64,000 nucleotides of DNA from Dongiaceae bacterium (GCA_040878185.1 JBBDMS010000021.1:52667-116666); one strand, 5' to 3'. Shown: positions 12,736 through 28,579, counted from the first letter of the stretch. Notes: generated by a model not told the origin, from the sequence alone. Numbers and translations: made by a program.

Positions 12736-12979
12736 TCGGTCAGAAGACCTTCTGCGTTTGGGAGCCGCTGGCAGGGCGGCCGCATCGCGAAATACGCCAT
12801 CGTCCTGGCGGAGGCGAATCCCTTCATTTCGCGGCGAATTAGCTGGCCAGCCTCCATTCTTGTCAAGGCGACGCCCGACCGCAGCCTGCGATCCGCGGCT
12901 CGACAGTCATGAGGCTGCCGACTAGGCTTCGGCCTCCGCGCAACGCCCAACCTTCCGTTTCGAGACCGATCGCTGCGCC

Positions 12980-13873
12980 ATGCAAGACGCCCCGCCGCCC
13001 TGGACCGAACGCGCCGCTTTGGTCTACGGGCCCCGCAAAGCCGGTACCACCTTGTTGCTGAACCTGCTGGACGGGAGCGACGCGCTATTGGCGTTTCCGA
13101 GCGAAGTGAAGCTGAAAGCGCTGCATCGCATCCCCGCCGGCGCGCATTCGCGTGAGACCTATCTGGCGCGATCGCGCATCGCCGAGGTCGACGCGGCCCG
13201 CCTGTCGCAGGATCGCTACCAGGCGCTTTGGGCAGCGGTCGATCCTAAAGCCGCCGCCGGCAGGCTTTGCACGCTGCTGCGCCTCGACGCATGGCATGTG
13301 CACCAGACCGCGGCGACGGCGCCGCGCGAACCGCAACTCTGGTGCGCCAAAGAGGTCGGCGGCGATACCGATGCGATCCTCGATCTGTGGCGGCGCTGTT
13401 TCCCCGATGCGCCGGTCCTGTTCATTCTGCGCAATCCCCTCATGGTCACGCGGGCCGTGTTGCAGGACCGCCGGCGCAAGGATCGACGATTGAGCATCGC
13501 CGAGATCGTCCGCGAAACCGCCGACCCGATGCGCGTGGTGGCGGCGCAGAGCCGTCATCTCGGCGATCCGCGCCTGCTCGCGATTGCATACGAGGACATG
13601 GTGACCGACACGCCCGCGACGATGCGACGCATCGCAGCGTTCCTCGGCATCCCCTTCGATGCGATCCTGTTGCAACCGACATTGTTCGGCGAACCAATCG
13701 TGGTGCGAACCTCGTCGCGTTCGACCACCGAAGTGTTTCAGGCTTCGGAGGAATGGGAGGATGGGCTGACCCGTCGGGAGCAGTTCTGGGTCAGGCTCAC
13801 GGCCGCTGTGCTCGGCTGTCTGCCCGGCTATCGCGTCGATTATGCATGGCTGCGGCAACGCGTGGCCGATTAG
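12980..13873 (+). CDS. sulfotransferase family protein (2 of 3)
   Basis: GPRKAGTTLLLNLL (5'-PSB loop) and FILRNPLMVTRA (3'-PB). Confidence 0.7.
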   Translation: MQDAPPPWTERAALVYGPRKAGTTLLLNLLDGSDALLAFPSEVKLKALHRIPAGAHSRETYLARSRIAEVDAARLSQDRYQALWAAVDPKAAAGRLCTLLRLDAWHVHQTAATAPREPQLWCAKEVGGDTDAILDLWRRCFPDAPVLFILRNPLMVTRAVLQDRRRKDRRLSIAEIVRETADPMRVVAAQSRHLGDPRLLAIAYEDMVTDTPATMRRIAAFLGIPFDAILLQPTLFGEPIVVRTSSRSTTEVFQASEEWEDGLTRREQFWVRLTAAVLGCLPGYRVDYAWLRQRVAD

Positions 13874-14202
13874 GAAATGGCCTGCAACGAGCGGGTCAGC
13901 CCGATCCACCTCCGCGTTCCGGCGCGGTGTCACGATATTGACCCGCCAATTGCGGCGGGGTTCCCGTATTCCCGCTTTCCCAGACGCGCCATTCACCGTT
14001 AGTCTTTGGAGAGATTGACTGATTCTTCCCGATTTGATCTCGCGCAATCGGGTAACCTTGGGCGATCCGGCCGGCGATGTTCGCGGAGTTCGCCACTTTC
14101 GCCCCAAAAGAGACCGATGAACGCAACCCGGCAGACCGGAATCCTTTCTGAAAGCGCACGTCGAACCGCGCCTTGCCTTTCGGCTTTTGGTAAACCCCGA
14201 TC

Positions 14203-15222
14203 ATGAACCCCGATAGCGGCGTCTATCGCAACCCGCCGTTGGAGGATCCGGTTCGGGTCATCTATGTCTGCTGCCACGGGCGAAGCGGCTCGACATTGCT
14301 CGGTGCCATCGCCGGCTTGCTGCCTCAGCACAGCTTCGTCGGCGAAGTGCGTACGATCTGGGAGGATGGTGTCGACAACAACAGGAATTGCGGCTGCGGC
14401 GAACCGTTCCGGAGCTGCCGCTTCTGGAACGAAGTGTTTAAGCGCGCCTATGGCGGGTTCGACACGCCGGCGGCCATGAAAACGCGCGACCTGCTGACGC
14501 GGCTTATGAAGGTCAACAGCAGGCCCGCTCTGTGGTGGGCGCTGCTGCGCGAAAACCGCCGGCACGAGACAACTCGCGCGTTGGCCGATGCGCTCGCCCC
14601 GCTCTATCGCGCCATCCACGACGTATCCGGTGGGCAGATCATCGTCGACACCTCCAAGCATGCACGGTTTGGTTTCGTCATTGCCAACATTCCCGGTGTC
14701 GATATCCGCTTCGTCAATCTGATCCGCGATGTTCGCGGCGTCATCTTTTCCCGTGCGCGACCGGCGCTGATGCGCGACGGCAGCACGCGACATGCGCAAC
14801 GCTCGAAGCAGCCGCACTACAGAACGGGAACCGTGTTGGGGCGTTGGCTCTTCCGGAATGCCCTCGCGATGCGCCTCGTTCGTCGCCATGGCGGCATTCG
14901 CGTACTTTATGAAGACTTCGTGCATGACCAGAAGCCCGCGCTCGTCGCATTGAGCGACAACGATCGCGCGCGGATCGCGCTGGATCGGCTGGCGTACCCG
15001 GATGCGGCGGAGATCGTCCAGCATCAGTTGGCGGGCAACTGGATCCGCAACCTGAAGATCGACACCTCGGAGCGTTGGCCCGACGAGCTGCCTCGTCCCG
15101 TGCAGCGGATCGCGACATTCTTCTCGTGGCCACTTCGGCGACGCTATCGCTACGAAGTGCAACAGCCGAGCGGCTTCGCCGAGCGTCCCGACACGAGGCA
15201 GAGCGCAAGAGCGGCTCGCTAG
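14203..15222 (+). CDS. sulfotransferase family protein (3 of 3)
   Basis: CCHGRSGSTLLGAI (5'-PSB) and VNLIRDVRGVIFS (3'-PB). Contains a Cys cluster CGCGEPFRSC. Confidence 0.7.
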   Translation: MNPDSGVYRNPPLEDPVRVIYVCCHGRSGSTLLGAIAGLLPQHSFVGEVRTIWEDGVDNNRNCGCGEPFRSCRFWNEVFKRAYGGFDTPAAMKTRDLLTRLMKVNSRPALWWALLRENRRHETTRALADALAPLYRAIHDVSGGQIIVDTSKHARFGFVIANIPGVDIRFVNLIRDVRGVIFSRARPALMRDGSTRHAQRSKQPHYRTGTVLGRWLFRNALAMRLVRRHGGIRVLYEDFVHDQKPALVALSDNDRARIALDRLAYPDAAEIVQHQLAGNWIRNLKIDTSERWPDELPRPVQRIATFFSWPLRRRYRYEVQQPSGFAERPDTRQSARAAR

Positions 15223-15332
15223 GCTCGAAATCGCACAATCGCTGTGTTAGGTTCGCGCGGCCTGCGAACCTGTCCCACCACCGCGCTTCCGGCCGCGCCA
15301 CGCGGCCCGAACCCGATCGAGCCCGCCCATTA

Positions 15333-16700
15333 ATGTCCCGTATACCGCCCGAGACCCTGGTCATTCCGGTCGAGACCCTGAACCGGGAGTTCGACGGCAA
15401 GCTATTGCTCGCGTTGGCCGCTGCCGAACGCGGCTATCGGGCGATCGTCGGTGGACGAACCCGCCTCCATCGGCATCTGACCGACCTGCCGCCCTCGATC
15501 TATCTCAGCAAGGGCATCCGCACCGGCAATCGCGTGATCCTCTCGCTGCTCGAGAAGCTCGGCCATACCGTGGTCGCGCTCGAGGAGGAAGGGCTCGTGC
15601 GCTTTTCCGACGAAGCGTACCTGATGATGCTCGATGTAGAAACGTTCAACCGCGCGCAGATGCTGTTTGCCTGGGGCCATGACAATGCCGAGGTGTGGCG
15701 GCGGTTCGGCGGCTATCGCGGTACGCCCATCATCGAGGCCGGCAACCCGCGCATGGACATGCTGCGACCCGAAGTCCGTAATTTCTACACCGACGATGTG
15801 GCGGCGATCCGGCAACGCTACGGCCGCTTCGCGCTCTTCAACAGCAATTTCAGTTTCGTCAATCATTTCATTCCCGGCCATATCCGCTTCCGCATTCCGG
15901 CCAATGCACGCTCGGAACGCTACGACCAGATGCGCAGCGGCGTGTATCAGCACAAAAAAGCGTTGTTCGACAGTTTCTGCGCGCTGATCCCGTCGCTAAG
16001 CAAAGCCGTGCAGCCGCACAATCTGGTGATTCGCCCGCATCCATCCGAGAACCGGCAGACCTGGAGAGATGTCGCAGCGGGCCTGCCCAACGTGCATGTC
16101 GTGTATGAGGGTACTGTCGTGCCGTGGCTGCTGGCCGCCGACGTGTTGGTGCATAACAGCTGCACGAGCGGCGTGGAGGCAGCCATCCTCGGCACGCCCG
16201 CCTTGTCCTATCGTCCGGTTTGGTCGGCGGAGTTCGATCCGCCCTTGCCGAACGATGTCAGCAGTGAGTTCGACGATGCAGCGGCGCTGGGCGATGCGGC
16301 GCAGGCGATCCTCGCGCGCAATTCGGCGGAGCGCTCGCTCTCGCCGGCGAACTATGAGCGGTTGTCCCATCACGTCGCGGCGCTCGACGGTAAACTGAGT
16401 TGCGACCGGATTCTCGATGCGCTGGTCGAACAGCAGGACCGGTTTGCGTCGATGCCGGCCCCAGGCTTGCTCGACCGGGCCATCGGTCATGCCGGCGTCG
16501 CCGCCCGCAATGCGCGACGGGCGATCACGACCCGGATGATGGGCCGCAGCAGTGCGACCTATACCGCCTACAAATTTCCGGGACTGGACGAGGCCTATGT
16601 CGCCACCCGGATCGAACGGTTTTGCACCCTCCTCGGGCGGTTCGACGGCATCGGCGTCCGACGCCTTCGGGACGATATCTTTCTGCTGGAACGGCGCTGA
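15333..16700 (+). CDS. surface-carbohydrate biosynthesis protein, GT-B-like (candidate nonulosonate/glycosyl or phospho-glycosyl transferase)
   Basis: ATG at 15333 (MSRIPPETL). C-terminal Rossmann-like IRPHPSE ... VLVHNSCTSGVEAAILGTPAL is typical of GT-B enzymes. From memory it resembles the family annotated 'surface carbohydrate biosynthesis protein' that accompanies nonulosonate loci. Confidence 0.5.
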   Translation: MSRIPPETLVIPVETLNREFDGKLLLALAAAERGYRAIVGGRTRLHRHLTDLPPSIYLSKGIRTGNRVILSLLEKLGHTVVALEEEGLVRFSDEAYLMMLDVETFNRAQMLFAWGHDNAEVWRRFGGYRGTPIIEAGNPRMDMLRPEVRNFYTDDVAAIRQRYGRFALFNSNFSFVNHFIPGHIRFRIPANARSERYDQMRSGVYQHKKALFDSFCALIPSLSKAVQPHNLVIRPHPSENRQTWRDVAAGLPNVHVVYEGTVVPWLLAADVLVHNSCTSGVEAAILGTPALSYRPVWSAEFDPPLPNDVSSEFDDAAALGDAAQAILARNSAERSLSPANYERLSHHVAALDGKLSCDRILDALVEQQDRFASMPAPGLLDRAIGHAGVAARNARRAITTRMMGRSSATYTAYKFPGLDEAYVATRIERFCTLLGRFDGIGVRRLRDDIFLLERR

Positions 16701-16833
16701 ACCGCGCGCATCGAGACAATCGCCCGGCGTCGCCCGGATGGGGGCCGATTGTTGCGATCCGGCCCCGGCTGGCGTATCTCCTGCCGACGTTCCCGCCGCC
16801 CGTCCGACGCGGCCCTGACCGGAGGCTGACCCC

Positions 16834-18087
16834 TTGAACGAAACCGGCTGGACCGAAGCGCGCATCCGCGACCTGCTCGCCACGAACGCCTTTACCTATC
16901 AGAATGTGAAGCTGCCGCACGGGCTGTCGACCGGCGGGAAAGACCGCTCCAAGACGGCGCGCGCCATTTTTCCAGCCGCAATACCCGGACGCTCGGTTTT
17001 CGATATCGGTTGCATGTACGGTTTCTTCTGTTTCGAAGCCGAGGATCGCGGCGCGACGCAAGCTGTCGGCGCAGACATCGATCCGGAGAACGTGCGCAAA
17101 TGCCGCCTGCTGGCGGAAGTCCGCGGCTCGAATGCGCAGTTCGTCTATTTCGATATCGAAGGCGACGAGATTCCACAGCAGTACGACTATGTGCTGTGCC
17201 TGAACGTGTTGCACCATCTGCGCAATCCGATCGGCGCGCTGGAGAAGATGATCCGCGCCACGCGCGAGCGTCTTGTTCTCGAAATCGCCTCGTTTGGGCC
17301 CAACGACCGCCGGAAGAACGGCGTGTCGAGACTCGCCGCCGCCTTCCTGCGCCGCTTGCCTGTCATGTACGTGCCCGGCTCGTCTTCCTGGGGGCGCAGC
17401 ACGAGCCAGACGTTTTTCATCACGGAAAAGGCGATCGAAACGCTGCTGCTGGCGCATCGCGCGTCGTTCGCAAAGATCGACTTCATCGATACCGGGCATA
17501 AGGGTCGTTACATCGCGGTCGCGCACAAGCGCCGCATCGGACATCTCGTCGTCGTGGCGGGGCTGCAGGCATCCGGCAAATCGACGCTGATCGAAGAGAT
17601 TCTTTCGAAATCGGGATCGCTGATCGCGAAGTATATCGACCTTGATCCGTCGAAAGCCTGGTCGGTGCAGCGCTTCGGCAGTCTGGTCGAGAACCGGCAG
17701 GCCGAGCACCCGAACCTGATCCTGCATTACAACATCTCGAAGCATCTCATCGACGGCGATCTGTTCCATCACAGCCGGGCGCTGGCCGACGTGATGGCGA
17801 CGGCCGAGAAGGTCACCATTGTGACCGTCTGGTGCCCGCGCGAACGGCTACTGCAGCAGTTCCGCGAAGGCCGCACCGGCAAACATCGGAAGACGATGCT
17901 CTCCCGCCAGCATCGCAAGAAAATCAAGCAGCTCTCGGCGCTGTACGAAAGCGAGACCGCCCTGCAGACGATGTTCGACGAATGGTTCGCTTTCGTGAAA
18001 CGCCGGTCGGACCCCGGATTCGTGGTCGAATACGACAAGGACTACCGGGTTTCGACGCTGGCTGCGTGGAATCCGACCCCGCTTTGA
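16834..18087 (+). CDS. fusion protein: class I SAM-dependent methyltransferase + P-loop NTPase/kinase-like domain, paralog B
   Basis: TTG start 9 nt after GGAGG. VFDIGCMYGFF, CLNVLHHL; Walker A VAGLQASGKST; LILHYN. Colinear with the 10485-11786 product, including a shared KRRIGHL linker. Confidence 0.65.
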   Translation: MNETGWTEARIRDLLATNAFTYQNVKLPHGLSTGGKDRSKTARAIFPAAIPGRSVFDIGCMYGFFCFEAEDRGATQAVGADIDPENVRKCRLLAEVRGSNAQFVYFDIEGDEIPQQYDYVLCLNVLHHLRNPIGALEKMIRATRERLVLEIASFGPNDRRKNGVSRLAAAFLRRLPVMYVPGSSSWGRSTSQTFFITEKAIETLLLAHRASFAKIDFIDTGHKGRYIAVAHKRRIGHLVVVAGLQASGKSTLIEEILSKSGSLIAKYIDLDPSKAWSVQRFGSLVENRQAEHPNLILHYNISKHLIDGDLFHHSRALADVMATAEKVTIVTVWCPRERLLQQFREGRTGKHRKTMLSRQHRKKIKQLSALYESETALQTMFDEWFAFVKRRSDPGFVVEYDKDYRVSTLAAWNPTPL

Positions 18088-18154: not shown

Positions 18155-19933
18155 ATGACCGATCGAGACAAAATGAGCAATTCCGCGGAGAATCTCGAAT
18201 ACGGACCGAAATATTTCGGTGCCTTGCGCATCTTCGCGACGACTCCGCCACTCCGTCAGGTCACGGTGCTGGTCTGCCTTATCGCCGCGACCTTCGCGGA
18301 AGGATTTGGCATGGCCGCCATTCTGCCGCTGCTGTCGATCGCACAGGGCAACGCGGGCGGCGATTCGGCGCTGAACCAGTTGATCACCGGCCTGATCCAT
18401 TTCATGGGACTGCCGCTCGACCTCGGTGTGGTCGCCTGTCTCATGGTCGCCGGATTCGTGGTCAAGGCCGCGCTGACGATGTTCGCGATGGGTCATGTCG
18501 GATACACGGTGACCAAGGTGACGACGGGGCTGCGGCTCAAGCTGATCGGGCGTCTGCTCGAAGCGAAATGGAGCTATTTCGCGCATCAGCCGGTCGGCCG
18601 GTTCGGCAATGCGATCAGCGGCGAAGCGGCGCGCGCGGGCGACGCGTATCTCGCGGTCGCAACGCTGATCGCCCTCACCTTCCAGACCATCATGTATCTG
18701 ATCCTTGCCTATCTGATGTCGTGGAAGCTCGCGCTTGCCGCAATCGCCCTTGGCGCGGTCATCGTCGTATCGCTCAACTGGCTGATCCGGGTGACAAAGC
18801 GCGCCGGCCGGACCCAGACCGCGCGCACCCGAAGCCTGACCGCGGGCCTGACCGACGCGCTGATCGGATTGAAACCGCTCAAGGCGATGGCACGCAACCT
18901 GCGATTCACCACGTTGTTCGACCGCGACGTGAAGGAGCTGAAGCGAGCTCTGCGCCGTCAGGTGCTGGCACGGAACGCAACCCGCTCCATGCAGGAAGTG
19001 ATGATCGTCGTGGCGATCGCGGTCGGATTTTATGGCGCCGTCGAAGTCGCGCATTACCCGGTCGATCAGGTCATCGTCATCGCGCTGCTTCTCATCAAGA
19101 CCGTGCTCACCTTGGCGCAGTCCCAGCGCACCCTGCAATCGGTCAATCAATGCGAGAGCGCCTACTGGTCGCTGCACGAGACGATCAAGGAAGCGGAAGC
19201 CGCCAAGGAGATATTCGTCGGCACCCGTGAACCGACTCTCGAACGCAACATCGAGTTTCACAATGTTGCGTTCTCGTTCGGGACCAAGGATGTGTTGCGC
19301 GGCGTGTCGCTCGAGATTCCCGCAGGCCAGGTGACGACGGTGACCGGCGGTTCCGGTGCCGGCAAAACAACGACCGCCGATCTCGTGCTCGGCCTCTATA
19401 TGCCCAAATCCGGCGATATTACCGTCGACGGCGTGTCGCTCCGCAACATCGATCTCCATAAATGGCGGGCGATGACCGGCTATGTGCCGCAGGAAGTGAT
19501 CCTCTTTCACGACACGATTTACGCCAACATCGCGCTCGGCGATCCGGCCTTCGACCCCGAGACGGTGCGCAATGCACTGGAAGCGGCCGGCGCATGGGAG
19601 TTCGTCACGGAATTGCCCGATCGGATGGACAGCGTCGTCGGCGAGCGCGGTACGCTCCTCTCGGGCGGCCAGCGCCAGCGCATTGCGGTCGCCCGTGCGA
19701 TCGTGCATCGACCCAAGCTGGTCATCCTCGACGAGGCGACGAGTGCACTCGATCCCGAAACCGAGTTCGCGATCTGCAGCAATCTGAAGTCGCTATCGCG
19801 CCGCACGGGCCTCACCATTCTGGCGATCACGCATCAGCCGGCCTGGGTCGAGGCGGCGGACCGGCTCTATCGCATCGCCGACGGACGGGTCATCGAGCCC
19901 ACGCCGCAGAGCGCGGCGATGGCGGCTTCCTGA
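18155..19933 (+). CDS. ABC exporter, fused TMD-NBD (MsbA/lipid-flippase-like half transporter)
   Basis: Six-helix N-terminal domain. Walker A GGSGAGKTT, signature LSGGQRQRIAVARA, Walker B LVILDEATSALD. Confidence 0.85.
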   Translation: MTDRDKMSNSAENLEYGPKYFGALRIFATTPPLRQVTVLVCLIAATFAEGFGMAAILPLLSIAQGNAGGDSALNQLITGLIHFMGLPLDLGVVACLMVAGFVVKAALTMFAMGHVGYTVTKVTTGLRLKLIGRLLEAKWSYFAHQPVGRFGNAISGEAARAGDAYLAVATLIALTFQTIMYLILAYLMSWKLALAAIALGAVIVVSLNWLIRVTKRAGRTQTARTRSLTAGLTDALIGLKPLKAMARNLRFTTLFDRDVKELKRALRRQVLARNATRSMQEVMIVVAIAVGFYGAVEVAHYPVDQVIVIALLLIKTVLTLAQSQRTLQSVNQCESAYWSLHETIKEAEAAKEIFVGTREPTLERNIEFHNVAFSFGTKDVLRGVSLEIPAGQVTTVTGGSGAGKTTTADLVLGLYMPKSGDITVDGVSLRNIDLHKWRAMTGYVPQEVILFHDTIYANIALGDPAFDPETVRNALEAAGAWEFVTELPDRMDSVVGERGTLLSGGQRQRIAVARAIVHRPKLVILDEATSALDPETEFAICSNLKSLSRRTGLTILAITHQPAWVEAADRLYRIADGRVIEPTPQSAAMAAS

Positions 19934-20009
19934 GCCTCGCCTTGTCCCTCGGGAACTCATTTGCTATGAGGCGGCCCGCCTTCTTCCCCCTCATGGACCC
20001 CTGCCTGGC

Positions 20010-21779
20010 ATGACGGAACCGAAACCGACTCCGACAACCCGCGCCCGTTTGCCATACCGGTGTGCCAATTTCGCGACGCTCGCCGAGGGGCTCGACTACG
20101 CCGCGCAGGGCCAATGCGGATTCAATTTCTATTCGGCACGCGGGCAATTGCTGAGCGCGCTGCCTTATGCCGAGCTGCGCGACCGTGCGATAGCGCTCGC
20201 GCGCGGGCTGATCGCGGCGGGGCTCAATCGCGGCGACCGTGTGCTGATGATCGCCGACACCGACCCCGATTTTATGATCGCGTTCTTCGCCTGCCAGTAT
20301 GCGGGCCTGTTGCCGGCATCGGCCGCGATCCCGACCAGCCTCGGCGGTCGCGAGGCCTATATCGCCTCGCTGCGCCGGCTGCTGCAATCGACCGGCTCGC
20401 GGGCCGCGATGGCGCCCGACAGTCTGATCGAATATCTGCGCGAGGCCGCCGACGGTCTCGATCTGCCGCTGGTCGGCGGGCCGCAGGATTTCTACAACCT
20501 CGCCCCGCGCGACGCGGCGTTGCGAACCTGGCAGAAGGACGAGCGCTGCTATCTGCAGTTCTCGTCGGGCAGTACGCGCTTTCCCCTCGGGATCGACATT
20601 TCCCAGCGCGTGCTGATGGCGAATGCCTATGCGATCGCGACCTACGGGCTCGAGATCGGCGCCGAGGATCGCTGTACGAGCTGGCTGCCGCTGTATCACG
20701 ATATGGGACTGGTCGGTTTTGCGCTGGTGCCCATGCTGACACAGATGTCGGTCGACTACCTCGCTACGCGCGATTTCGCACGCCGGCCGCTGATGTGGCC
20801 GACGCTCATCACGATGAACGGCGGGACGCTCTCTTACAGCCCGAGCTTCGGCTACGACCTCGCCGCGCGGCGCCTCCATGACGGCAATCTGCGGGTCGAG
20901 GGTATCGATCTCAGCCGCTGGCGCGGTGCCGGGATCGGCGGCGACATGATCCAGCCGAAAGTGCTCGAACGCTTTGCCGATATTTTTGGTCCCTACGGCT
21001 TCCGCCGCGAGGCCTTCGTGCCGAGCTACGGCATGGCGGAAACCGCGCTTGCGATTTCGTTCGCGCCGCTCGACACCGGCGTCGAGATCGATCGCGTCGA
21101 CCGGCAGCGTCTTGCCGAGCGCGGCGAGGCGGTTACGGCACCGGCCGATGCCTCGAACGCGCGGGATTTCGTACTCTGCGGCAAGCCGCTCGGCGGCCAC
21201 AGGATCGAAGTGCGCGACGAGACCGGACGCGCCTTGCCTGAACGCAAGCTCGGCCGCGTGTTCGTCAGCGGCCCCAGCATCATGGTCGGTTATTTCGAGG
21301 AGCCCGAGGCGACGGCCGCGGTGCTGCAGCCCGATGGCTGGCTCGATACCGGCGATCTCGGATACCTGACCGGCGGCCAGATCGTGATCACCGGCCGCAG
21401 CAAGGATCTCATCATCATCAACGGTCGCAATATCTGGCCGCAGGATCTCGAATGGTCGGTCGAGGACGGGCTGGGCCTGCGCCGCGGCGATACGGCAGCG
21501 TTTGCGTTCGAGGGCGATGACGGCAGCGAGCGCGTGATGATGCTGGTGCAATGCCGCGTGCCCGACGACGAGCGCCGTCAGCAGCTTGCGCGCGACGTCG
21601 CCGCCATCCTGCAACGCAGCCACGCGGTCGAGGCGGGCGTTTCGCTGGTGCCGCCGCACGGACTGCCGCAGACCTCGTCGGGCAAACTGAGCCGCACCCG
21701 GGCCAAGGCGAACTGGCTGTCCGGCCTCTACCAGGCGGGCCCCGACGGGATGCGAAAGACCGCCTCCGGGGCAAGCTGA
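20010..21779 (+). CDS. fatty acyl-AMP ligase / acyl-ACP synthetase (sphingolipid-associated)
   Basis: Adenylate-forming motifs YLQFSSGSTRFP, GYGMAET-like SYGMAETAL, and TGDLGY...GRSKDLIIINGRN. Directly upstream of the SDR-ACP-Spt genes. Confidence 0.8.
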   Translation: MTEPKPTPTTRARLPYRCANFATLAEGLDYAAQGQCGFNFYSARGQLLSALPYAELRDRAIALARGLIAAGLNRGDRVLMIADTDPDFMIAFFACQYAGLLPASAAIPTSLGGREAYIASLRRLLQSTGSRAAMAPDSLIEYLREAADGLDLPLVGGPQDFYNLAPRDAALRTWQKDERCYLQFSSGSTRFPLGIDISQRVLMANAYAIATYGLEIGAEDRCTSWLPLYHDMGLVGFALVPMLTQMSVDYLATRDFARRPLMWPTLITMNGGTLSYSPSFGYDLAARRLHDGNLRVEGIDLSRWRGAGIGGDMIQPKVLERFADIFGPYGFRREAFVPSYGMAETALAISFAPLDTGVEIDRVDRQRLAERGEAVTAPADASNARDFVLCGKPLGGHRIEVRDETGRALPERKLGRVFVSGPSIMVGYFEEPEATAAVLQPDGWLDTGDLGYLTGGQIVITGRSKDLIIINGRNIWPQDLEWSVEDGLGLRRGDTAAFAFEGDDGSERVMMLVQCRVPDDERRQQLARDVAAILQRSHAVEAGVSLVPPHGLPQTSSGKLSRTRAKANWLSGLYQAGPDGMRKTASGAS

Positions 21780-21782
21780 TCC

Positions 21783-22733
21783 ATGGCCCGACTGGTCGCC
21801 GTAACGGGTGCGACCGGGTTTGTCGGCGGCCATGTCGCTCGTGCCTTCACCGATGCCGGCTGGCGTGTGCGTATTCTCGCGCGGCGCATTCCGCTCAGCC
21901 CGCAGCTCGCCGATCTGACCCCCGACCTCGTCCCCGGCTCGCTCGAAGACGAAGATGCGCTGCGGGCTCTGGTGCGCGGTGCCGATGCGATCGTCCACGC
22001 GGCGGGCTCGGTCAAGGCCCTCGATGCCGCCTCGTTCCATCGCGACAACGCGGACGGCACCGCGCGGATGGTTGCGGCGGCGCACGCTGCTGCGCCGGAA
22101 GCAAGATTCCTGCTGATCTCGTCGCTATCGGCGCGCGAACCGGCCTTGTCGCCCTATGCGGCGAGCAAGCGCGCGGGTGAACGGGCGCTCGAAACCGGCG
22201 GCGCCAGTCTCGACTGGACGATCCTGCGACCGCCCGTGGTGTACGGGCCGGGCGACCGGGAAATGCTGCCGTTCTTCCGCATGGCGGCCAACGGCATGTT
22301 GGCGGCACCGGACAATGGCGCCGCCCGTCTTTCGCTCATCCATGCCGCCGATCTGGCACGAGCCTGCGTCGCGATCGTCGAGCGCCGCGAGTGGCGGCAC
22401 GCAACGATCGAGATCGACGATGGCCATCCCCGCGGCTATGGCTGGCCGGACATTGCGGACGCTCTCGCCGCCGCTGTCGGCCGGCCGGTTCGGCTGCGGC
22501 GGTTACCGCGCTGGCTGTTCGACGCGGTCGCCACCGTGAGCGCCGGCTGGGCCGAAATGACAAAATTGCCGGCCATGGTGACGCCCGGCAAGGTTCGCGA
22601 GCTGTTTCATCCGGACTGGATTTCCCGCGTGCCCGAATTTCCGCAAAATCTGGGCTGGTTGCCGCAATTCACTGTTAACAAAGGTTTTTCTGTGACGGCG
22701 GCGGCGTATCGCGGGCTCGGTCTGCTGCGATGA
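21783..22733 (+). CDS. NAD-dependent epimerase/dehydratase-family SDR (ceramide reductase CerR candidate)
   Basis: VTGATGFVGGHV Rossmann motif. Its position between the acyl-ACP ligase and ACP/Spt matches the Caulobacter ceramide locus (from memory). Confidence 0.7.
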   Translation: MARLVAVTGATGFVGGHVARAFTDAGWRVRILARRIPLSPQLADLTPDLVPGSLEDEDALRALVRGADAIVHAAGSVKALDAASFHRDNADGTARMVAAAHAAAPEARFLLISSLSAREPALSPYAASKRAGERALETGGASLDWTILRPPVVYGPGDREMLPFFRMAANGMLAAPDNGAARLSLIHAADLARACVAIVERREWRHATIEIDDGHPRGYGWPDIADALAAAVGRPVRLRRLPRWLFDAVATVSAGWAEMTKLPAMVTPGKVRELFHPDWISRVPEFPQNLGWLPQFTVNKGFSVTAAAYRGLGLLR

Positions 22734-22739
22734 ATCGAG

Positions 22740-22769
22740 TTGTAACAAAGGGTTACAATTCTTTATTTC
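22740..22769 (+). promoter_or_regulatory. perfect 7-bp inverted repeat TTGTAAC-N5-GTTACAA followed by a T-rich run, in an AT-rich island upstream of the ACP gene
   Basis: Read directly: ttgtaacaaagggttacaa ttctttatttc. Lies 7 nt after the SDR stop (22733). Either an operator or a weak intrinsic attenuator. Confidence 0.4.
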
Positions 22770-22869
22770 ACTAAACCCCTGACCTAATTGGAATCTACGG
22801 CTGTCCAGGCCACGACGCGCGTCGCGGTATTTGGATTCGTGGAGCGATCGAGTCGAGGCAGCGTTGAGA

Positions 22870-23121
22870 ATGGAAGTGGCCGAGTCTGGAACGTTCGAGC
22901 GGGTCGTGGAAGTTTTGCGACCGTTCCGGAAGAACGAGACCCCGATCGGACGGGGCAGCGATCTGGCCGACGATCTTCGCCTCGACTCGCTGGCGGTGAT
23001 GGACCTGATGATGGAACTCGAGGAACGGTTCGACATCACCATCCCATTGAATGCCGTTCCGGAAATCCGGACGGTCGGCGATCTGGCCGATTTCGTCGCA
23101 AAGCAGAAGGCAGAGGGATAA
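22870..23121 (+). CDS. acyl carrier protein (dedicated, sphingolipid-associated)
   Basis: Phosphopantetheine site DDLRLDSLAVMDLMMELEE. ATG at 22870 gives an 83-aa protein; the track's TTG at 22831 is probably too long. Confidence 0.85.
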   Translation: MEVAESGTFERVVEVLRPFRKNETPIGRGSDLADDLRLDSLAVMDLMMELEERFDITIPLNAVPEIRTVGDLADFVAKQKAEG

Positions 23122-23125
23122 GACG

Positions 23126-24343
23126 ATGGGTTTGTTCGACCGGTTCAAGGGCCTGAAGGCCGCCCATAGCGCCGCAAAGTCCTGCGGCGACGATCCATTT
23201 GCCATTCGCATGGACGAAGTGCTCTCGCCGACCGAAGCGATGATCGAAGGCCGGCACACCATCCTCGCCGGCACCAACAATTACCTCGGCCTCACCTTCG
23301 AGCCGTCCTGCGTCGCCGCCTCGGCCGAGGCGGTGCGCACGCACGGCACCGGCACCACCGGTTCGCGCGTCGCCAACGGCTCCTATGCCGGGCACAAGGC
23401 GCTTGAGGATTCGATTGCCGATTTCTTCGGTCGCAAGCACGCCATGGTTTTCACCACGGGCTACCAGGCCAATCTCGGCATCATCGCCACATTGGCCGGC
23501 CCACAGGACTATCTGATCATCGATTCCGACTCGCATGCGAGCATCTACGATGCGACGCGGCTGAGCAGCGCCACCGTTCTGCGCTTCAAGCATAACGATC
23601 CGGACGATCTCGACCGCCGCCTCTCGAAGCTCGGCAACGAGGCGGTCAACAAAGTGATCGTCGTCGAGGGTATCTACAGCATGCGCGGCGATATCGCGCC
23701 GCTGGCCGAGTTCGCGGCGGTGAAGCGCAAGCATGGCGCCTATCTCGTCGTCGACGAGGCGCATTCGATGGGCGTCATGGGCGATACCGGTCGCGGTGCG
23801 GCAGAGTTCTACGGCGTCGAGGCCGATGTCGATTTCATCGTCGGCACGTTCTCTAAGAGCCTGGGCGCGATCGGCGGCTATTGCGTCTCCGATCATCCGG
23901 AGTTCGATATCCTGCGCGTCGCCTGCCGGCCCTACATGTTCACGGCCTCGCTGCCGCCGTCGATCGTGGCCTCGGTCGCGGCCTCGCTCGAAGTGATGAA
24001 GGAGCGGCCGACATTGCGCGACAATCTCTGGGCCAATGTGAACCAGCTTTACGGCACGCTGCAGCGGCGTGGGTTCGTGCTCGGGCCGCACAAGAGCCCC
24101 GTCGTGGCGGTGCATCTGCCCGATCCGGCCAGTGCGATCCAGGTCTGGCACGAGCTGCTGCTGGCCGGCGTCTATGTGAACCTGACATTGCCGCCGGCGA
24201 CGCCGAACAATATAGCGCTGCTTCGCTGTAGCGTCTGTGCGGCGCATACGAGCGAGCAGCTTGCCGTCGTTGCGGACCGTCTGACCGAGATCGCCGAACG
24301 GCATGGCGTGATCGGCAGCATGCGCATGGCCGCCGCCGGCTGA
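23126..24343 (+). CDS. spt: serine palmitoyltransferase (alpha-oxoamine synthase family, PLP-dependent)
   Basis: AOS-family motifs: GTGTTGSRVANG, DSDSHASI, VDEAHSMG, PLP-lysine GTFSKSLG. ATG at 23126 lies 4 nt after the ACP stop, preceded by GAGGGA. Confidence 0.85.
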   Translation: MGLFDRFKGLKAAHSAAKSCGDDPFAIRMDEVLSPTEAMIEGRHTILAGTNNYLGLTFEPSCVAASAEAVRTHGTGTTGSRVANGSYAGHKALEDSIADFFGRKHAMVFTTGYQANLGIIATLAGPQDYLIIDSDSHASIYDATRLSSATVLRFKHNDPDDLDRRLSKLGNEAVNKVIVVEGIYSMRGDIAPLAEFAAVKRKHGAYLVVDEAHSMGVMGDTGRGAAEFYGVEADVDFIVGTFSKSLGAIGGYCVSDHPEFDILRVACRPYMFTASLPPSIVASVAASLEVMKERPTLRDNLWANVNQLYGTLQRRGFVLGPHKSPVVAVHLPDPASAIQVWHELLLAGVYVNLTLPPATPNNIALLRCSVCAAHTSEQLAVVADRLTEIAERHGVIGSMRMAAAG

Positions 24344-24425: not shown

Positions 24426-25382
24426 TCAGCGGAAGGCGCCGGCGCGGTAGAAGCGCCACAGCAATATCGGCGCCGCGAGGATCGGGTGGCGTCGCTCCCA
24501 GGGGCTCACCGGCGGCCGCACGGCGGCATGGCGCTCGACCTTCCAGAGCGCGTAATCGACCGCGCCGTCGACCGTAAAGACCGCCTTGATGAGACGCAGC
24601 AGGTTCAGGCTCTTGCCCGCGACACGCCGGCGGATCCACGCGCGACGGCCGGCTTTGCGCGCCGATGCATCGAGCGGATTGCGATAGAATCCGACATCGT
24701 GGGCAAAGGCGGCGTCGCCTAACGTTGCCGCCGTCAGCGCCTCATAGCGGTCGCGATCCGCCGCGACGATCAGGATGGCACGATCGCGGCCCCGTTCGCT
24801 GCGCAACTCGGCGCCATAGGTCGCGCGAAATCCCGTCTCCCACAGCCGTTCAGCGGTGAAGCGGTCGCCGACCAGTGGAAGGCTCGCCGCCACAAACGTT
24901 TCCACCGCATCGGCACAGGCGGCTTCGAACGCCCTTCCCACGGCCTCGTCCCGTGTGACAACAAGCCGTGCCGGCTGTGCGAACCGGGCCCAGAGCGCGC
25001 TGGTCTTGCTTCGCGGCCCGCATCCGCGCGCGAACTGCGCCAGCGAGATCACGGCATATTTGGCGCGCAGAGGCACGCCATTGATGATCGTTTCGACAAA
25101 GAACACGTTCGGCGGCAGAAGGCGATTGAAACGCGCGATCCAGGGTCGGTCGGGATAGGCGCTGCGGTAATCGTCCACCAGCAGATAGAAGTCGAGCAGG
25201 CTGTCGGGACTCGAGAGTGCTGCTTCGCCGCTGCGCAGGCAGGAGCCGTAGAACAGAACGGCCGCACTGCCGCTTCCATGTCGCTGCATCACCTGCGTCG
25301 CGAGGTCGCGCACCAATGCCGGAACCGGAAGCGCCAGTTCGTCGCGTACGATGGCCGAAACCTGCTGCATCGCCTGCTGCAT
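24426..25382 (-). CDS. Tam41/Mmp37-like nucleotidyltransferase-fold protein (putative lipid-phosphate cytidylyltransferase)
   Basis: NTase-like VLFYGSCLRSGE...DFYLLVDDY. RAKYAVISLAQF and LWARFAQPARLV resemble the Tam41 KYGV..(L) and LY.AGR..KPV segments. By-eye call that needs HMM confirmation. Confidence 0.45.
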   Translation of the reverse strand: MQQAMQQVSAIVRDELALPVPALVRDLATQVMQRHGSGSAAVLFYGSCLRSGEAALSSPDSLLDFYLLVDDYRSAYPDRPWIARFNRLLPPNVFFVETIINGVPLRAKYAVISLAQFARGCGPRSKTSALWARFAQPARLVVTRDEAVGRAFEAACADAVETFVAASLPLVGDRFTAERLWETGFRATYGAELRSERGRDRAILIVAADRDRYEALTAATLGDAAFAHDVGFYRNPLDASARKAGRRAWIRRRVAGKSLNLLRLIKAVFTVDGAVDYALWKVERHAAVRPPVSPWERRHPILAAPILLWRFYRAGAFR

Positions 25383-25405: not shown

Positions 25406-26365
25406 TCAGAGCCGCGCGAAGGTCAACGCATGCCCGCTTTCAACGATGATCGGCTCGCCCGGCACCGGATCGATCCGCTCACCGTCGAACAACAAAGGCG
25501 CGTCGGCCTCGATGGCGAGGCGAACGACGCGGCCGCTACGATAGCCTGCATCCTTCATCCAGTCGCGCGGCGTCCCGCGGATCAGCGGCAAAAGGGCCGA
25601 AAGGAAGCGGCGCGGCGGGCTCTGAACCCATGTCCATCGAATCGGCGCCTCGCCGGCGCCCCAGAACGGATCGGCCCCGAGAATGAGGCCCGGCAAGGTT
25701 GTCGCGAGAAAGAGATAGCACTCACCGCTGGCTATCTCCGCATTGTCACCGACCAACCGAATGCGTGTTCCCTGTTTTCGCCCGGCAAAAACGGTGTGCA
25801 CGATCAGCATGAACGCCGCCGCTGCAGCCGCGGTCGACTGGGCAAAACCGACCGGGTGAACGCGCCGGCGCGCCAGCTGCGTCGTATTGTAAAACGCAGC
25901 GCCGCCGAGCAGCAGACCGTACTGGATATCGGCATTCGCCCCGGCCCGAACCGACAGGACCGGATGCGTCAGCAGATCGAGCGGACGCCCTGCATCGCGC
26001 CGCTGCAACAGCGCCGTGAGCCCGAAATCGGGCTTGCCTGGAATACCGAGCCGATGACCGGTGACGTTCGTCATGCCGCCGGCCAGCACGGCGAGAGGCG
26101 GCGTGATGGCAAAGGGATTACGGCCGATCAGTGCCGTCATCGTTGCCTGCACGGTGCCATCGCCACCGGAAACCGCCAGCAAGGTCGCGCCAGCCGCGGC
26201 GAATTCGTCCAGCACCGCCGGAATGTCTCCAATATGCTCGATCTCGCGCGTCAGCACGCGCTGCGCCGGGCGATAGACCGCGCGCACGCGCTCGAGCCGC
26301 TCGCGGTTGCGCCGGCTGCGCGGGTTGACGATCAGCCCGATCGGACCGCTGAAGACGCCGTTCAT
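25406..26365 (-). CDS. diacylglycerol/sphingosine-kinase-family lipid kinase (ceramide kinase candidate)
   Basis: DAGK catalytic motif LLAVSGGDGTV and LAVLAGGMTN. ATG at 26365 forms an ATGA overlap with the upstream gene's stop. The 533-aa track ORF is an upstream over-extension. Confidence 0.75.
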   Translation of the reverse strand: MNGVFSGPIGLIVNPRSRRNRERLERVRAVYRPAQRVLTREIEHIGDIPAVLDEFAAAGATLLAVSGGDGTVQATMTALIGRNPFAITPPLAVLAGGMTNVTGHRLGIPGKPDFGLTALLQRRDAGRPLDLLTHPVLSVRAGANADIQYGLLLGGAAFYNTTQLARRRVHPVGFAQSTAAAAAAFMLIVHTVFAGRKQGTRIRLVGDNAEIASGECYLFLATTLPGLILGADPFWGAGEAPIRWTWVQSPPRRFLSALLPLIRGTPRDWMKDAGYRSGRVVRLAIEADAPLLFDGERIDPVPGEPIIVESGHALTFARL

Positions 26366-27522
26366 GCCGTCTCCGTCAGCCAGGATCGCAACGCGCCGTT
26401 GCGCCGCTTCGCGAGCACCGCCTGCCCGATCCGCACCAGATGGAACAGCAGCGAAAGGATCGTCCAAATCGCAACGGCGATGAATCCTTCCGCCGGCCGG
26501 TCGAACAGGATCGCGAGCGTCAGGATGGCGAGGTTGGGATTGCGCCGCGCGGTGATCGTGCGGAACCAGTAATCGACCGGCCGCCAGATATGAATTTCGA
26601 TACCGAAGCGCGCCATGAAGAATCCTTCTTCGGCGCGTCCGAGCACATAGCCGGCGACGATTACCCAGAGCGCGGGCAATAGCCATTCGCCCAGTTCGGG
26701 CGATACCGGCACAGTCGCCAGCCCGACATACCAGGCCCAGTACCAGAAAGGTGGATGGATAAGATCGATGCCATGATCGAACACCTCGCCCATTTTGGTC
26801 GAGGTGAGCGTAACGCGGGCGAGCTTGCCATCGACCGTGTCGAGGAACGTCATTCCCCAGGCGGCGACCAGACCGAGCGCGAACTGCCCGGTCCAGAACA
26901 GCCAGAATGCGGCGATCACCAGCAACAGGCTGACGAACGTCACCGCGTTGGGCGAAATGCCGAGCGCGCTGCACCAGCGCGTCACCTGGCGCGCCGGCCA
27001 AGGCCATAGATATTTGGTTACGAAATCGGTCGCGCCTTTGTACGCGCCCGAGAAACTCGCGCGTTCGAGAACGTCGCGCGGCGTGCCGTCGAGCGGCAGC
27101 AGATATGGCGTCGCGCGCTTGCGCAGGGTCGCATCGTAGGAGCCGGCCAGTTCCACCGGTCCAAGCCGTTCGAGCCCGGCCCCGCGCACGACCCCGTCCA
27201 GGTCGATCTCGCCGGAAGCACCAGCGGCGGCGGCTCCGGCCCTCACATGCGCGGCAACGAGTTTTGAACGGTCCGCCGGATCGACCAGCGCCCGGCCCGG
27301 TTGCCCGATCAGCGCCCGGATGATGGATTCGTCATAGAGATAGTCCGTGCGAAGCAGGAGCAGGCCGCCCGCCGACGCCGCGCCAACGGTCGAATCGATC
27401 CCCGCGCGCAGCAAGGCGCGGCGCAGCCGCTCGGCCCCGGTTAACCCCCAGAGCCGTCGTCCGGCGGAACCGAGCAACCGAACTGCGGGTTTATCCGCGT
27501 TGCGGGGGTGTGAATCTGTCAT
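26362..27522 (-). CDS. CDP-alcohol phosphatidyltransferase-family membrane protein with an N-terminal ~170-aa soluble extension
   Basis: Signature DTVDGKLARVTLTSTKMGEVFDHGIDLI (D-x2-DG-x2-AR-x8-G-x3-D-x3-D) and multiple TM helices. ATG at 27522, or TTG at 27540. Confidence 0.8.
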   Translation of the reverse strand: MTDSHPRNADKPAVRLLGSAGRRLWGLTGAERLRRALLRAGIDSTVGAASAGGLLLLRTDYLYDESIIRALIGQPGRALVDPADRSKLVAAHVRAGAAAAGASGEIDLDGVVRGAGLERLGPVELAGSYDATLRKRATPYLLPLDGTPRDVLERASFSGAYKGATDFVTKYLWPWPARQVTRWCSALGISPNAVTFVSLLLVIAAFWLFWTGQFALGLVAAWGMTFLDTVDGKLARVTLTSTKMGEVFDHGIDLIHPPFWYWAWYVGLATVPVSPELGEWLLPALWVIVAGYVLGRAEEGFFMARFGIEIHIWRPVDYWFRTITARRNPNLAILTLAILFDRPAEGFIAVAIWTILSLLFHLVRIGQAVLAKRRNGALRSWLTETA

Positions 27523-27595
27523 GAGAGAATCTGGCCGCAATCCGGGGATGAGTTTGAAGGCCGCATGGGCCGCCGCTTGACCGAACCGGCCGGCC

Positions 27596-28579
27596 TTGGG
27601 ACAAGACCAGCCGACCCGCTCTTATAACCGCCCACTGGACTCCCGCCAATTGTTCACCCTGGCCCATCTTTCCGATCCGCATTTGGCCGGCTGGCCCCTG
27701 CCCGGCCTGCGCGCGATCGCCAACAAGCGGGCCTTCGGCCTTCTGTCCTGGCAATTGCGCCGGCGGCGCATCCATCTGTCGAGCGTGCTCGCCGCTCTTT
27801 GCGCGGATCTTCGGAAGGCGGCCCCCGATCACACGGTCATTACCGGCGATATCGTCAATATCTCGCTGCCCGAAGAGTTCGCGCGCGCGACCCAATGGCT
27901 GGGCGCGTTCGGGACACCCGAGGCGTTGACGGTGATCCCGGGCAATCACGATGCGTATATCGACCTGCCCTGGGACGAGACGATCGGCCACTGGCGATGT
28001 TACATGCGCGACGAACCGGCAGCGAGCGCGATCGGGAAGCCGTTCGAGGGGCCCGACGACTTCCCGTTCGTGCGGCGTCGCGGCCGGATCGCTCTCGTGG
28101 GCACGTCGAGCGCCTGCGCGATGCCGATCGGCAGCGCGGCCGGCCGCCTCGGTGCCCCGCAGATCGAACGACTGCGCCATCGGCTCGACGAACTCGGCAA
28201 GGAAAATCTGTTCCGGGTCGTGCTGATCCATCATCCGCCGTTCGAGGATCGCCATCATCGCCGCAAGGAACTCGAAGATATCGTCGAGCTGCGCGCCGCG
28301 ATTGCCGCGAGCGGCGCCGAACTGGTCCTGCATGGGCACACACACCGTTCGAGCCTGAACCGCATCGCCGTGCCGGATGGCACGGCGCCCGTCATCGGCG
28401 TCGCTTCAGCATCGGCTCGTGCCTGGGCCAACAAGGATCCGGCGCGCTATCATCTTTACCGCATCGAACCCGCCGGCGATGGCTGGCGGGTGGAAGTTGA
28501 GGTCCGCACCGTCACCGTCACGCTCGATCGATTCGAACGGACCGGTGGTTTCCGACTGGATGTCCCGCTGGCCGCATAA
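27596..28579 (+). CDS. calcineurin-like metallophosphoesterase
   Basis: LSDPHL, ITGDIVN, GNHD, IHHPP, LHGHTHR motifs. TTG start (uncertain). Confidence 0.75.
   Translation: MGQDQPTRSYNRPLDSRQLFTLAHLSDPHLAGWPLPGLRAIANKRAFGLLSWQLRRRRIHLSSVLAALCADLRKAAPDHTVITGDIVNISLPEEFARATQWLGAFGTPEALTVIPGNHDAYIDLPWDETIGHWRCYMRDEPAASAIGKPFEGPDDFPFVRRRGRIALVGTSSACAMPIGSAAGRLGAPQIERLRHRLDELGKENLFRVVLIHHPPFEDRHHRRKELEDIVELRAAIAASGAELVLHGHTHRSSLNRIAVPDGTAPVIGVASASARAWANKDPARYHLYRIEPAGDGWRVEVEVRTVTVTLDRFERTGGFRLDVPLAA

Follow-up and report, generated by a model that had tools for sequence, protein, structure and literature searches.

We analysed a 64,000-nucleotide stretch of DNA from a Dongiaceae bacterium (GCA_040878185.1, JBBDMS010000021.1:52667-116666; hereafter the window), in which five consecutive genes encode an ATP-binding cassette (ABC) exporter, an AasR-type fatty acyl-AMP ligase, a CerR-type reductase, a dedicated acyl carrier protein (ACP; AcpR) and a serine palmitoyltransferase (SPT; Spt). 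These genes are the core of a ~32-kb Caulobacter-type sphingolipid cluster, spanning about 2909-34970, of a Dongiaceae-like alphaproteobacterium. The ceramide core and the overall architecture of the locus are already-known biology. Our main subject is the exporter gene at the head of the block, which we consider a candidate for the transporter that flips a sphingolipid across the inner membrane. Features and their coordinates are collected in Table 1.

The five genes are separated by gaps of 76, 3, 136 and 4 nt, given an ATG at 22870 for acpR and an ATG at 23126 for spt. A mechanical list of open reading frames (ORFs) offers earlier starts for both, TTG 22831 for the ACP and ATG 23051 for the SPT, the latter of which would overlap the ACP gene. 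We favour the later starts because homologues are 81-87 (ACP) and 405-407 (SPT) amino acids (aa) long and because the NCBIfam SPT model aligns full-length from residue 1. Third-position G+C of all five ORFs is 0.76-0.82, like that of the window's other real genes; overall G+C is 60-67% in 2-kb windows. A terminator scan returned 8 terminator-like sites where 7.7 were expected, which is chance level and so uninformative, and none of them falls in the 76-nt gap between the exporter gene and aasR. The identical five-gene order is found in six related loci of our comparison set (L001, L012, L013, L014, L015 and L017), the ABC proteins of which are 52-96% identical to that of the window. Since the order recurs with diverged exporters and with differing upstream neighbours, the arrangement is not a matter of chance.

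The ceramide enzymes were identified by equivalog models and solved structures. Spt scores 653.2 bits against the NCBI equivalog NF047599 (cut-off 500) and stays under the cut-offs of BioF (326.8; cut-off 426) and Kbl (302.3; cut-off 460). Its best solved structure in a PDB search is the SPT of Sphingomonas wittichii (2x8u, 2e-140), with the S. paucimobilis SPTs at ~1e-129, whereas the best Kbl entry is at 1e-65 and BioF at ~1e-54. The pyridoxal phosphate motifs DEAHSMG and GTFSKSLG are present in its translation. Assignment of Spt as BioF, Kbl or the cysteate acyltransferase of the sulfonolipid pathway was tried and rejected, at no more than 225, no more than 187 and 181 bits, respectively, compared with 471 for SPT. 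The ligase reaches 801 bits with the fatty acyl-AMP ligase model NF006624 (cut-off 600), has a fatty acyl-adenylate ligase (FAAL; 3pbk, 3e-152) as its best PDB match, and in related loci its gene is always followed by those for a short-chain dehydrogenase/reductase (SDR), an ACP and an SPT. PDB matches of CerR include the NDUFA9 subunits of complex I (1e-9 to 1e-8), a homology that has been reported (PMC11087976); its GxxGxxG motif starts at residue 8, and by eye there is no obvious signal peptide. AcpR matches ACP models at E = 1e-14 and falls under the housekeeping-ACP cut-offs, as expected of a specialised ACP; the serine that would carry phosphopantetheine lies in LRLDSLAVMDL, and the counterparts of AcpR in homologous loci contain PF00550. 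The initial annotation, made from the sequence alone, had described these five genes with their order and gaps and had likened the last four to the Caulobacter aasR-cerR-acpR-spt block. ORF coordinates and domain content agree with the former, and the Spt equivalog together with the published gene order with the latter. It had also named closer kinship of Spt with BioF or Kbl as a finding that would undo this view, and the opposite is the case: the SPT equivalog cut-off is passed and solved SPTs are far nearer.

The exporter has intact ATPase motifs (Walker A GGSGAGKTT, Q-loop, LSGGQ, Walker B with catalytic glutamate ILDE, and H-loop ITHQ). It remains under every NCBIfam cut-off, with the HepA family highest (287 bits; cut-off 725), followed by MsbA (TIGR02203, 254.7/602; NF008381, 206.6/867) and PglK (188/1000). 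An AlphaFold2 model built with 46 family members (mean pLDDT 85) predicts six long transmembrane helices and a nucleotide-binding domain (NBD). The top Foldseek matches of the model are the MsbA proteins of P. aeruginosa and E. coli (25-27% identity, TM score 0.75-0.77), with that of P. aeruginosa first at 27% identity and a TM score of 0.75; TmrAB, PCAT1 and ABCB8 are nearly as good, and the matches to MsbA and these three reach E ~1e-28 at TM scores of 0.64-0.77. With the transmembrane domain (TMD; residues 24-352) as the only query, the match to E. coli MsbA drops to 22 bits (E = 7e-4), within the 22-31 bits obtained for any solved structure; this alignment is too poor for residues to be equated with the basic, lipid A-binding ones of MsbA. 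Members of the family are 35-96% identical to one another and ~25% identical to MsbA. These features point to a canonical half-transporter of an uncurated subfamily, presumably active.

The protein had earlier been called MsbA-like, a description that fits the fold and the ATPase domain but neither the equivalog models nor the 22-bit membrane domain. We rejected its assignment as a true MsbA on the failed equivalog cut-offs, the membrane domain and a genomic context of sphingolipid rather than lpx or kdt genes. Could the gene be a housekeeping msbA, or one for a drug or peptide exporter of unrelated function, adjoining the cluster by chance? MsbA is the top structural match and the second-best NCBIfam model, and a gene for a protein resembling the transferase of 3-deoxy-D-manno-octulosonic acid (Kdo) lies near the exporter gene in L016 and L101 (weak or faint PF04413; a homologue in L100). 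Its identity to MsbA structures is, however, no better than that to TmrAB, ABCB8 or PCAT1; domain scans of the window's larger ORFs met no lipid A or Kdo genes (lpxK, kdtA or other lpx and kdt genes); and linkage to sphingolipid genes holds through four arrangements, as set out below. We therefore regard an origin of this kind as very improbable.

Genomic context was followed outwards from the exporter in two samples: 12 relatives from a species-representative genome collection, one of them not evaluable as its contig ends at the ABC gene, and nine further family members of 49-70% identity chosen for long contigs. Close relatives of the ABC protein belong to Dongia species and to metagenome-assembled genomes of Dongiaceae and 'Rhodospirillaceae'. 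Sphingolipid genes occur within 10 kb of the ABC gene in 19 of the 20 evaluable contexts, and every evaluable relative in the species-representative set resides in a locus with such genes. The linkage persists through four different arrangements. The ABC gene is directly upstream of aasR in L001 and L012 of the species-representative set, and directly upstream of aasR-cerR-acpR-spt in L013, L014, L015 and L017, where the genes on its other side are quite different. Nine Dongia-type loci (L003-L011; 37-42% identity) have the ABC gene with a divergent second paralogue ~4.6 kb upstream of aasR. The distance to aasR is 6.4 kb in L099, with the gene embedded in a glycan module, and in L016, L100 and L101 the ABC gene lies 6-7 kb from hydroxylase, bCerS and nucleotidyltransferase genes rather than from the spt core.

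Two of these arrangements have features of their own. The Dongia paralogues (L003-L011, about 9900-13700) are divergently transcribed and 36-42% identical to the window protein, and a Dongia-conserved protein of 660-670 aa is encoded between them and aasR. A degenerate ATP site, sought as a heterodimer signature, was absent from both paralogues, which are canonical; the pair could form one heterodimer or two homodimers. In L016 (11732-21719), L100 (11738-21719) and L101 (7830-21710), the ABC gene is followed by genes for a 2-oxoglutarate (2OG)-Fe oxygenase and an ELM1 glycosyltransferase (GT), then for a histidine phosphatase, a fatty-acid hydroxylase, a bCerS-like protein and two nucleotidyltransferases. 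A Methyltransf_21 gene is present in L016 and L100, the Kdo-transferase-like protein of L016 and L101 resembles WaaA, and L101 alone encodes a protein with a faint KdoO match. A toolkit like that for the core of lipopolysaccharide (LPS) adjoins the bCerS-like gene in these three loci.

Starting instead from the ligase, a profile of diverse AasR representatives yielded 80 metagenomic loci, in 50 of which an SDR and/or SPT gene stands beside the ligase gene. Six AasR-anchored loci contain an ABC-family member, scoring 250 bits or more at 35-43% identity: upstream of aasR in L018, and immediately downstream of spt in L026, L030, L037 and L058, where it is co-directional, and in L050, where it is convergent. 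In a neighbour-joining tree the sphingolipid-linked ABC proteins group together, with the generic ABC exporter of L041 (24% identity) outside; as L041 is the single outgroup, the tree lends weak support. Six other loci carry a gene of the Wzx-like family (PF01943/PF13440), which is directly upstream of aasR in the Caulobacteraceae-type loci L023, L043, L044 and L054, 1.1 kb upstream of it in L033, and after spt in L062. The gene order of L054 is exactly that of Caulobacter, and annotated Phenylobacterium proteins match its Wzx-like protein at 68-83% identity. The two families were never met in one sampled locus (6 versus 6). A hidden Markov model of the locus-linked Wzx-like family found no such ORF in the window, and the ABC protein lacks PF01943 and PF13440. 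The loci L036 and L038 have neither transporter; there, a gene for an MFS_3 protein ('transmembrane secretion effector') directly follows the bCerS-like gene (7187-8413 and 7763-8998, respectively), and this may be a third alternative transporter.

In Caulobacter crescentus, the gene that comes right before aasR on the same strand is CC_1166 (CCNA_01224), which encodes a nine-helix Wzx-like protein (IPR002797/PF01943; PMC11324152; Olea-Ozuna et al., PLoS Pathog 2024). CC_1166 has been proposed as a flippase that moves phosphosphingolipid from the inner membrane's inner leaflet to its outer one, with moderate cofitness as support (PMC11324152). The initial annotation had set the exporter down as a departure from the Caulobacter locus, but Caulobacter is not empty at this place. 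Because CC_1166 occupies the same site, the ABC gene is a positional substitute and not an addition. Moreover, positional substitution combined with mutual exclusion is the pattern expected of one required role, and so strengthens the flippase assignment for both families. The suggestion that the exporter is a candidate sphingolipid flippase has gained ground, as a candidate, from gene linkage that is both conserved and rearranged.

The ABC family also keeps company with a glycan and modification module, which in the window occupies the 15 kb upstream of the exporter gene. ELM1 and/or NeuB homologues are found in 19 of 23 ABC-bearing loci, in none of the 6 Wzx-type loci and in 3 of 39 other sphingolipid loci, counts that take in related genomes and overstate independence, with ~10 distinct lineages estimated. 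The co-occurrence extends to loci in which the ABC gene follows spt, and the GT8-like protein recurs alongside. Modules with an ABC gene in L013, L014, L017, L026, L030, L037, L050 and L099 comprise ELM1, GT8-like, NeuB-type and CMP-sugar synthetase genes, up to three sulfotransferase genes and methyltransferase genes. The module comes with additional paralogues of the CDP-alcohol transferase that are of the ceramide-phosphate type. The TIGR04396 protein of the window, tried as an equivalent of CC_1167 (IPR007554), gave no Pfam match at E up to 1. The products of the ELM1, NeuB, CMP-sugar and sulfotransferase genes probably attach a glycan, and the pattern suggests that the ABC family serves sphingolipids with a larger glycan headgroup. 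The module is a hint of glycosphingolipids that carry sulfate or acidic sugars, a kind undescribed in bacteria to our knowledge.

The same association allows for an exporter that serves the glycan module itself, flipping an oligo- or polysaccharide on a carrier other than a sphingolipid in the manner of PglK or HepA, in which case its adjacency to spt would reflect the clustering of surface-glycolipid genes. The model scores for HepA and PglK fit this, as do the distribution of ELM1 and NeuB and two particular loci: L099, where the exporter gene sits inside the module, and L098, where it lies amid sulfotransferase, methyltransferase and GDSL genes. Against it, our scans of the modules met no gene of the initiating phosphoglycosyltransferase, Wzy, Wzz, KpsMT or Wzm/Wzt type, and the module itself resides within sphingolipid loci together with the ceramide-phosphate-type CDP-alcohol transferase paralogues. 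Furthermore, in L012-L017 the neighbours upstream of the ABC gene vary and the aasR-spt side is constant, and in L058 the ABC gene follows spt with no ELM1 or NeuB match, on a contig that ends inside the ABC gene. The varying upstream neighbours weaken the idea that the exporter belongs with the upstream genes only, whereas L098, L099 and the correlation with ELM1 and NeuB keep it alive as a rival, one that we consider unlikely.

We propose, with a probability of about 0.6, that the ABC exporter flips a headgroup-decorated sphingolipid, or a late intermediate of one, across the inner membrane, upstream of LptB-LptF2G2. According to the literature on the Caulobacter and Sphingomonas homologues, AcpR receives a fatty acid from AasR, Spt carries out the condensation of acyl-AcpR with serine, and the product of Spt is N-acylated by bCerS and reduced by CerR; from the ceramide kinase and CPG2 headgroup genes of Caulobacter, kinase, CDP-alcohol transferase and nucleotidyltransferases build an anionic phospho-headgroup. 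The headgroup would be assembled on the cytoplasmic leaflet, because the nucleotides required by the kinase and by the CDP-alcohol, nucleotidyl and CMP-sugar enzymes are cytoplasmic, and a charged, bulky sphingolipid would therefore need a flippase. The ABC protein, probably as a homodimer, would use ATP to move the headgroup-bearing lipid from the cytoplasmic to the periplasmic leaflet, a step analogous to that of MsbA with lipid A-core and to that proposed for the Wzx-like CC_1166. LptF2 and LptG2, powered by LptB, would then extract the flipped lipid towards the outer membrane, as homology to the proteins of the Caulobacter experiments suggests.

An earlier substrate is conceivable. In the topology model of the Klein laboratory, C. 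crescentus CerR, which was localised to the periplasmic face, acts after export (PMC11087976), so that the ABC protein might flip undecorated 3-oxo-dihydroceramide for reduction by periplasmic CerR. The exporter gene, aasR and cerR form one co-directional run, 76 and 3 nt apart, in which no terminator is convincing, and this would suit such a role. The CerR of the window, on the other hand, starts at its Rossmann motif with no signal peptide evident to the eye, and the nucleotide requirements of the kinase, CDP-alcohol transferase and nucleotidyltransferases, judged from their enzyme families, lead one to expect the headgroup before flipping. The ABC family, moreover, correlates with glycan genes and not with the universally present CerR, and in most sphingolipid loci CerR occurs without an ABC gene. 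Flipping of the early intermediate appears, on balance, quite improbable.

Several observations weigh against the export of a decorated sphingolipid. The ABC family is tied to the ELM1/NeuB/sulfotransferase module no less closely than to the spt core, so that the exported molecule could be a glycan on another carrier, and the periplasmic CerR of the Caulobacter model entails flipping before reduction (PMC11087976). L098 (10001-21806), with an ABC protein 56% identical to that of the window, is the single exception to the linkage and has no spt, aasR or bCerS within 10 kb; the ABC gene has sulfotransferase, methyltransferase, 2OG-oxygenase-like and GDSL-lipase genes as its neighbours, with the housekeeping genes purL and rpsD nearby. 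Among the 13 AasR-anchored loci flanked by 2.5 kb or more on either side, three have the ABC family, three the Wzx-like family and seven neither, although small or atypical transporters may be missed in these seven by locus gene calls that used a crude third-position G+C and ORF filter with a hydropathy count. Phylogenetic kinship is also common among the sampled loci (L001 and L002 stand close to the window in this sense, and L005-L011 are from Dongia), and the counts overstate the number of independent events.

A more specific version of sphingolipid export is possible, and we put it forward tentatively: the product may be an LPS-like surface glycolipid on a ceramide anchor, exported by a complete private route of ABC flippase plus LptF2/LptG2 that mirrors LPS export at each step. 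At the cytoplasmic face, a nonulosonic-acid or Kdo-like sugar and further glycosyl, sulfate and methyl groups would be added to ceramide or ceramide phosphate. Candidate enzymes would be NeuB, the CMP-sugar synthetase, the ELM1 and GT8-like transferases, the three sulfotransferases and, in sister loci, the WaaA-like and KdoO-like proteins. Caulobacter-type lineages, with small phospho-headgroups only, would use the Wzx-like flippase instead.

Table 1. Features of the window, with positions counted from its first nucleotide
Feature	Position	Strand	Remarks
Upstream glycan/modification module, whole	2909-18087		
ELM1-family GT	2909-4078		
GT8-like protein	4110-5000	-	~300 aa
Sulfotransferase	5112-6179	-	
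GFO/IDH/MocA oxidoreductase	6405-7595		
NeuB-cupin fusion	7623-9155		related to NeuB and PseI, under cut-off
CMP-sugar synthetase, PseF/KdsB-like	9650-10474		
Methyltransferase	10485-11843	-	
ORF without family assignment	11797-12735	-	
Sulfotransferase	12980-13873		
Sulfotransferase	14203-15222		
TIGR04396 'surface carbohydrate' protein	15075-16700		
Methyltransferase	16834-18087		
ABC exporter, fused TMD-NBD half-transporter, type IV fold	18155-19933	+	592 aa; PF00664 + PF00005
AasR-type fatty acyl-AMP ligase/acyl-ACP synthetase (CC_1165 position)	20010-21779	+	589 aa; PF00501, NF006624
CerR-type NAD(P)-dependent reductase, SDR (CC_1164 position)	21783-22733	+	316 aa; PF01370/PF13460
Palindrome TGTAAC-N5-GTTACA	22741-22757	+	right after cerR stop, ahead of acpR-spt; single occurrence in window
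AcpR-type dedicated acyl carrier protein	22870-23121	+	83 aa; DSL motif, acyl-carrier models
Serine palmitoyltransferase Spt	23126-24343	+	405 aa; NF047599
CC_1161-position protein	24426-25382	-	318 aa; role in ceramide-phosphate headgroup synthesis (PMC11324152 S1 Text) by position only
Ceramide/lipid kinase, DAGK_cat (CC_1160/CpgB position)	25406-26365	-	PF00781, 5e-14
CDP-alcohol phosphatidyltransferase-family protein (CC_1159/CpgA position)	26362-27540	-	PF01066; synteny
Metallophosphoesterase (CC_1158 position)	27596-28579	+	PF00149
HIT protein (CC_1157 position)	28650-29099	+	PF01230
LptF2, sphingolipid-locus paralogue of LPS extraction permease	29106-30296	+	PF03739, 245 bits
LptG2, sphingolipid-locus paralogue of LPS extraction permease	30296-31387	+	PF03739, 243 bits
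Fatty-acid/sphingolipid hydroxylase	31444-32259	+	PF04116; between lptG2 and bCerS-like gene
Putative bCerS-type N-acyltransferase (CC_1154 position)	32272-33429	+	385 aa; weak PF00583, 3.5e-4
Nucleotidyltransferase (CC_1153 position)	33426-34223	+	PF12804, NTP_transf_3
Nucleotidyltransferase (CC_1152 position)	34245-34970	-	PF00483/PF12804
tRNA-Asn	35221-35295		marks cluster end

Downstream of spt, the cluster continues in the Caulobacter manner as far as the tRNA-Asn gene, the only hit in an Rfam scan of the window. The published order of CC_1161-CC_1152 is a Tam41-like protein, ceramide kinase, CDP-OH transferase, phosphoesterase, HIT, LptF2, LptG2, bCerS and two nucleotidyltransferases (PMC11324152 S1 Text). 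Fourteen consecutive positions, from aasR to the two nucleotidyltransferase genes, match the order CC_1165-CC_1152, the insertion of the hydroxylase gene aside. The CC_1161-position protein has no Pfam family at E up to 1; its counterpart adjoins spt in L001, L003, L011-L014, L017, L020 and others. Kinase homologues of 318-328 aa hold the same position in related loci. The mechanical ORF of the kinase (25406-27007) extends well into the CDP-alcohol transferase gene, read in a different frame; the likely start is an ATG at 26365-26363 that forms an ATGA overlap with the stop codon of the gene before it. This overlap suggests translational coupling of the two headgroup enzymes. The published Caulobacter gene order lacks a hydroxylase at this place, and the pairing of hydroxylase and bCerS-like genes recurs in L016, L100 and L101. 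The bCerS-type protein itself has a weak PF00583 match and no NCBIfam match; its position after LptG2 and its conservation fit a bCerS, with homologues at 330-400 bits in many AasR-anchored sphingolipid loci.

The adjacent lptF2 and lptG2 genes, two PF03739 permeases within the sphingolipid locus 9 kb downstream, had gone unseen in the first reading of the cluster, which was otherwise right about its core. In Caulobacter, LptF2/LptG2, with LptB, are required downstream of sphingolipid synthesis and now have experimental support as the machinery of extraction (bioRxiv 10.64898/2026.04.12.717747; Uchendu, Isom, Klein). The same preprint proposes no sphingolipid flippase, citing MsbA as an LPS precedent only, and reports lptC2 in Caulobacter only; among the window ORFs scanned we identified no LptC2 gene.

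The spacer between cerR and acpR contains a palindrome that, with the flanking TTCTTTATTTCAC, reaches 22770 and is conserved while the remaining spacer varies. The identical sequence is found at the same spot in L001, L012, L013, L014 and L099, and the palindrome or variants of it in the same spacer of L001, L003-L014, L017, L036, L038, L040 and L099. Dongia and other loci have the arm-swapped form TGTTAC-N5-GTAACA, in which the symmetry is kept. Of 32 matches with up to 2 mismatches in 1.34 Mb of loci, 18 lie in this ~150-nt spacer. The element could be an operator, or a weak hairpin or attenuator, ahead of acpR-spt.

The passage of bacterial sphingolipids across the inner membrane is a recognised gap in knowledge: in 2024, the Klein laboratory wrote that neither flippases nor lipid transporters had been identified for them (PMC11087976), and the only published candidate is the Wzx-like CC_1166. 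The present analysis adds a second, unrelated transporter class, which in other lineages takes the same position, is linked to sphingolipid genes through rearrangements and has not been met beside the Wzx-like gene in any sampled locus. In the searchable literature, with subscription-only papers outside its scope, we found no ABC exporter subfamily embedded in bacterial sphingolipid loci, nor the mutual exclusion of ABC and Wzx-like genes or the link of the ABC gene to a nonulosonic-acid/ELM1/sulfotransferase module. The gene is an ATP-driven and testable candidate for the missing inner-membrane step, and a cultured carrier of the family exists in Dongia mobilis CGMCC 1.7660. Finally, the co-occurring NeuB, ELM1 and sulfotransferase genes suggest unexplored sphingolipid headgroups.

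The closest known system is the C. crescentus locus CC_1152-CC_1168 (CCNA_01212-01226), with aasR-cerR-acpR-spt, cpgABC, lptF2/G2 and bCerS, which has the same families in the same order over 14 positions. Both loci encode a dedicated ACP, an NDUFA9-like reductase, a DAGK-type ceramide kinase, a CDP-alcohol transferase, a phosphoesterase, a HIT protein and LptF2/LptG2, and the putative bCerS of the window would correspond to the GNAT-type ceramide synthase. The window differs in its ABC exporter in place of the Wzx-like CC_1166, in the fatty-acid hydroxylase gene inserted before bCerS, in the 15-kb ELM1/NeuB/CMP-sugar/sulfotransferase/methyltransferase module upstream, and in its host, which is Dongiaceae-like and not of the Caulobacterales. 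CC_1166 and the ABC exporter share position, strand and proposed step, whereas CC_1166 belongs to the MOP superfamily, has no ATPase and draws on another energy source.

Three ABC-type systems invite comparison with the exporter. MsbA, which uses ATP to flip lipid A-core (Kdo2-lipid A) across the inner membrane, shares the fused TMD-NBD half-transporter architecture and the type IV fold and gives the best structural match; the two would also be analogous in role if the ABC protein acts upstream of an LptFG-type extractor. Exporters of the HepA-family and PglK types flip or export glycan-bearing lipids, a role that fits the glycan genes neighbouring the ABC gene. HepA gives the best-scoring NCBIfam model and PglK also matches, both far under cut-off, and the window locus, unlike theirs, has no heterocyst or N-glycosylation context. 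The LptB2-LptF2G2 complex, for which the window encodes LptF2 and LptG2 at 29106-31387, is likewise a sphingolipid-dedicated ABC-type lipid transporter, but it serves another step, in which the lipid is drawn out of the periplasmic leaflet towards the outer membrane, and does so with a type VI fold and a separate ATPase.

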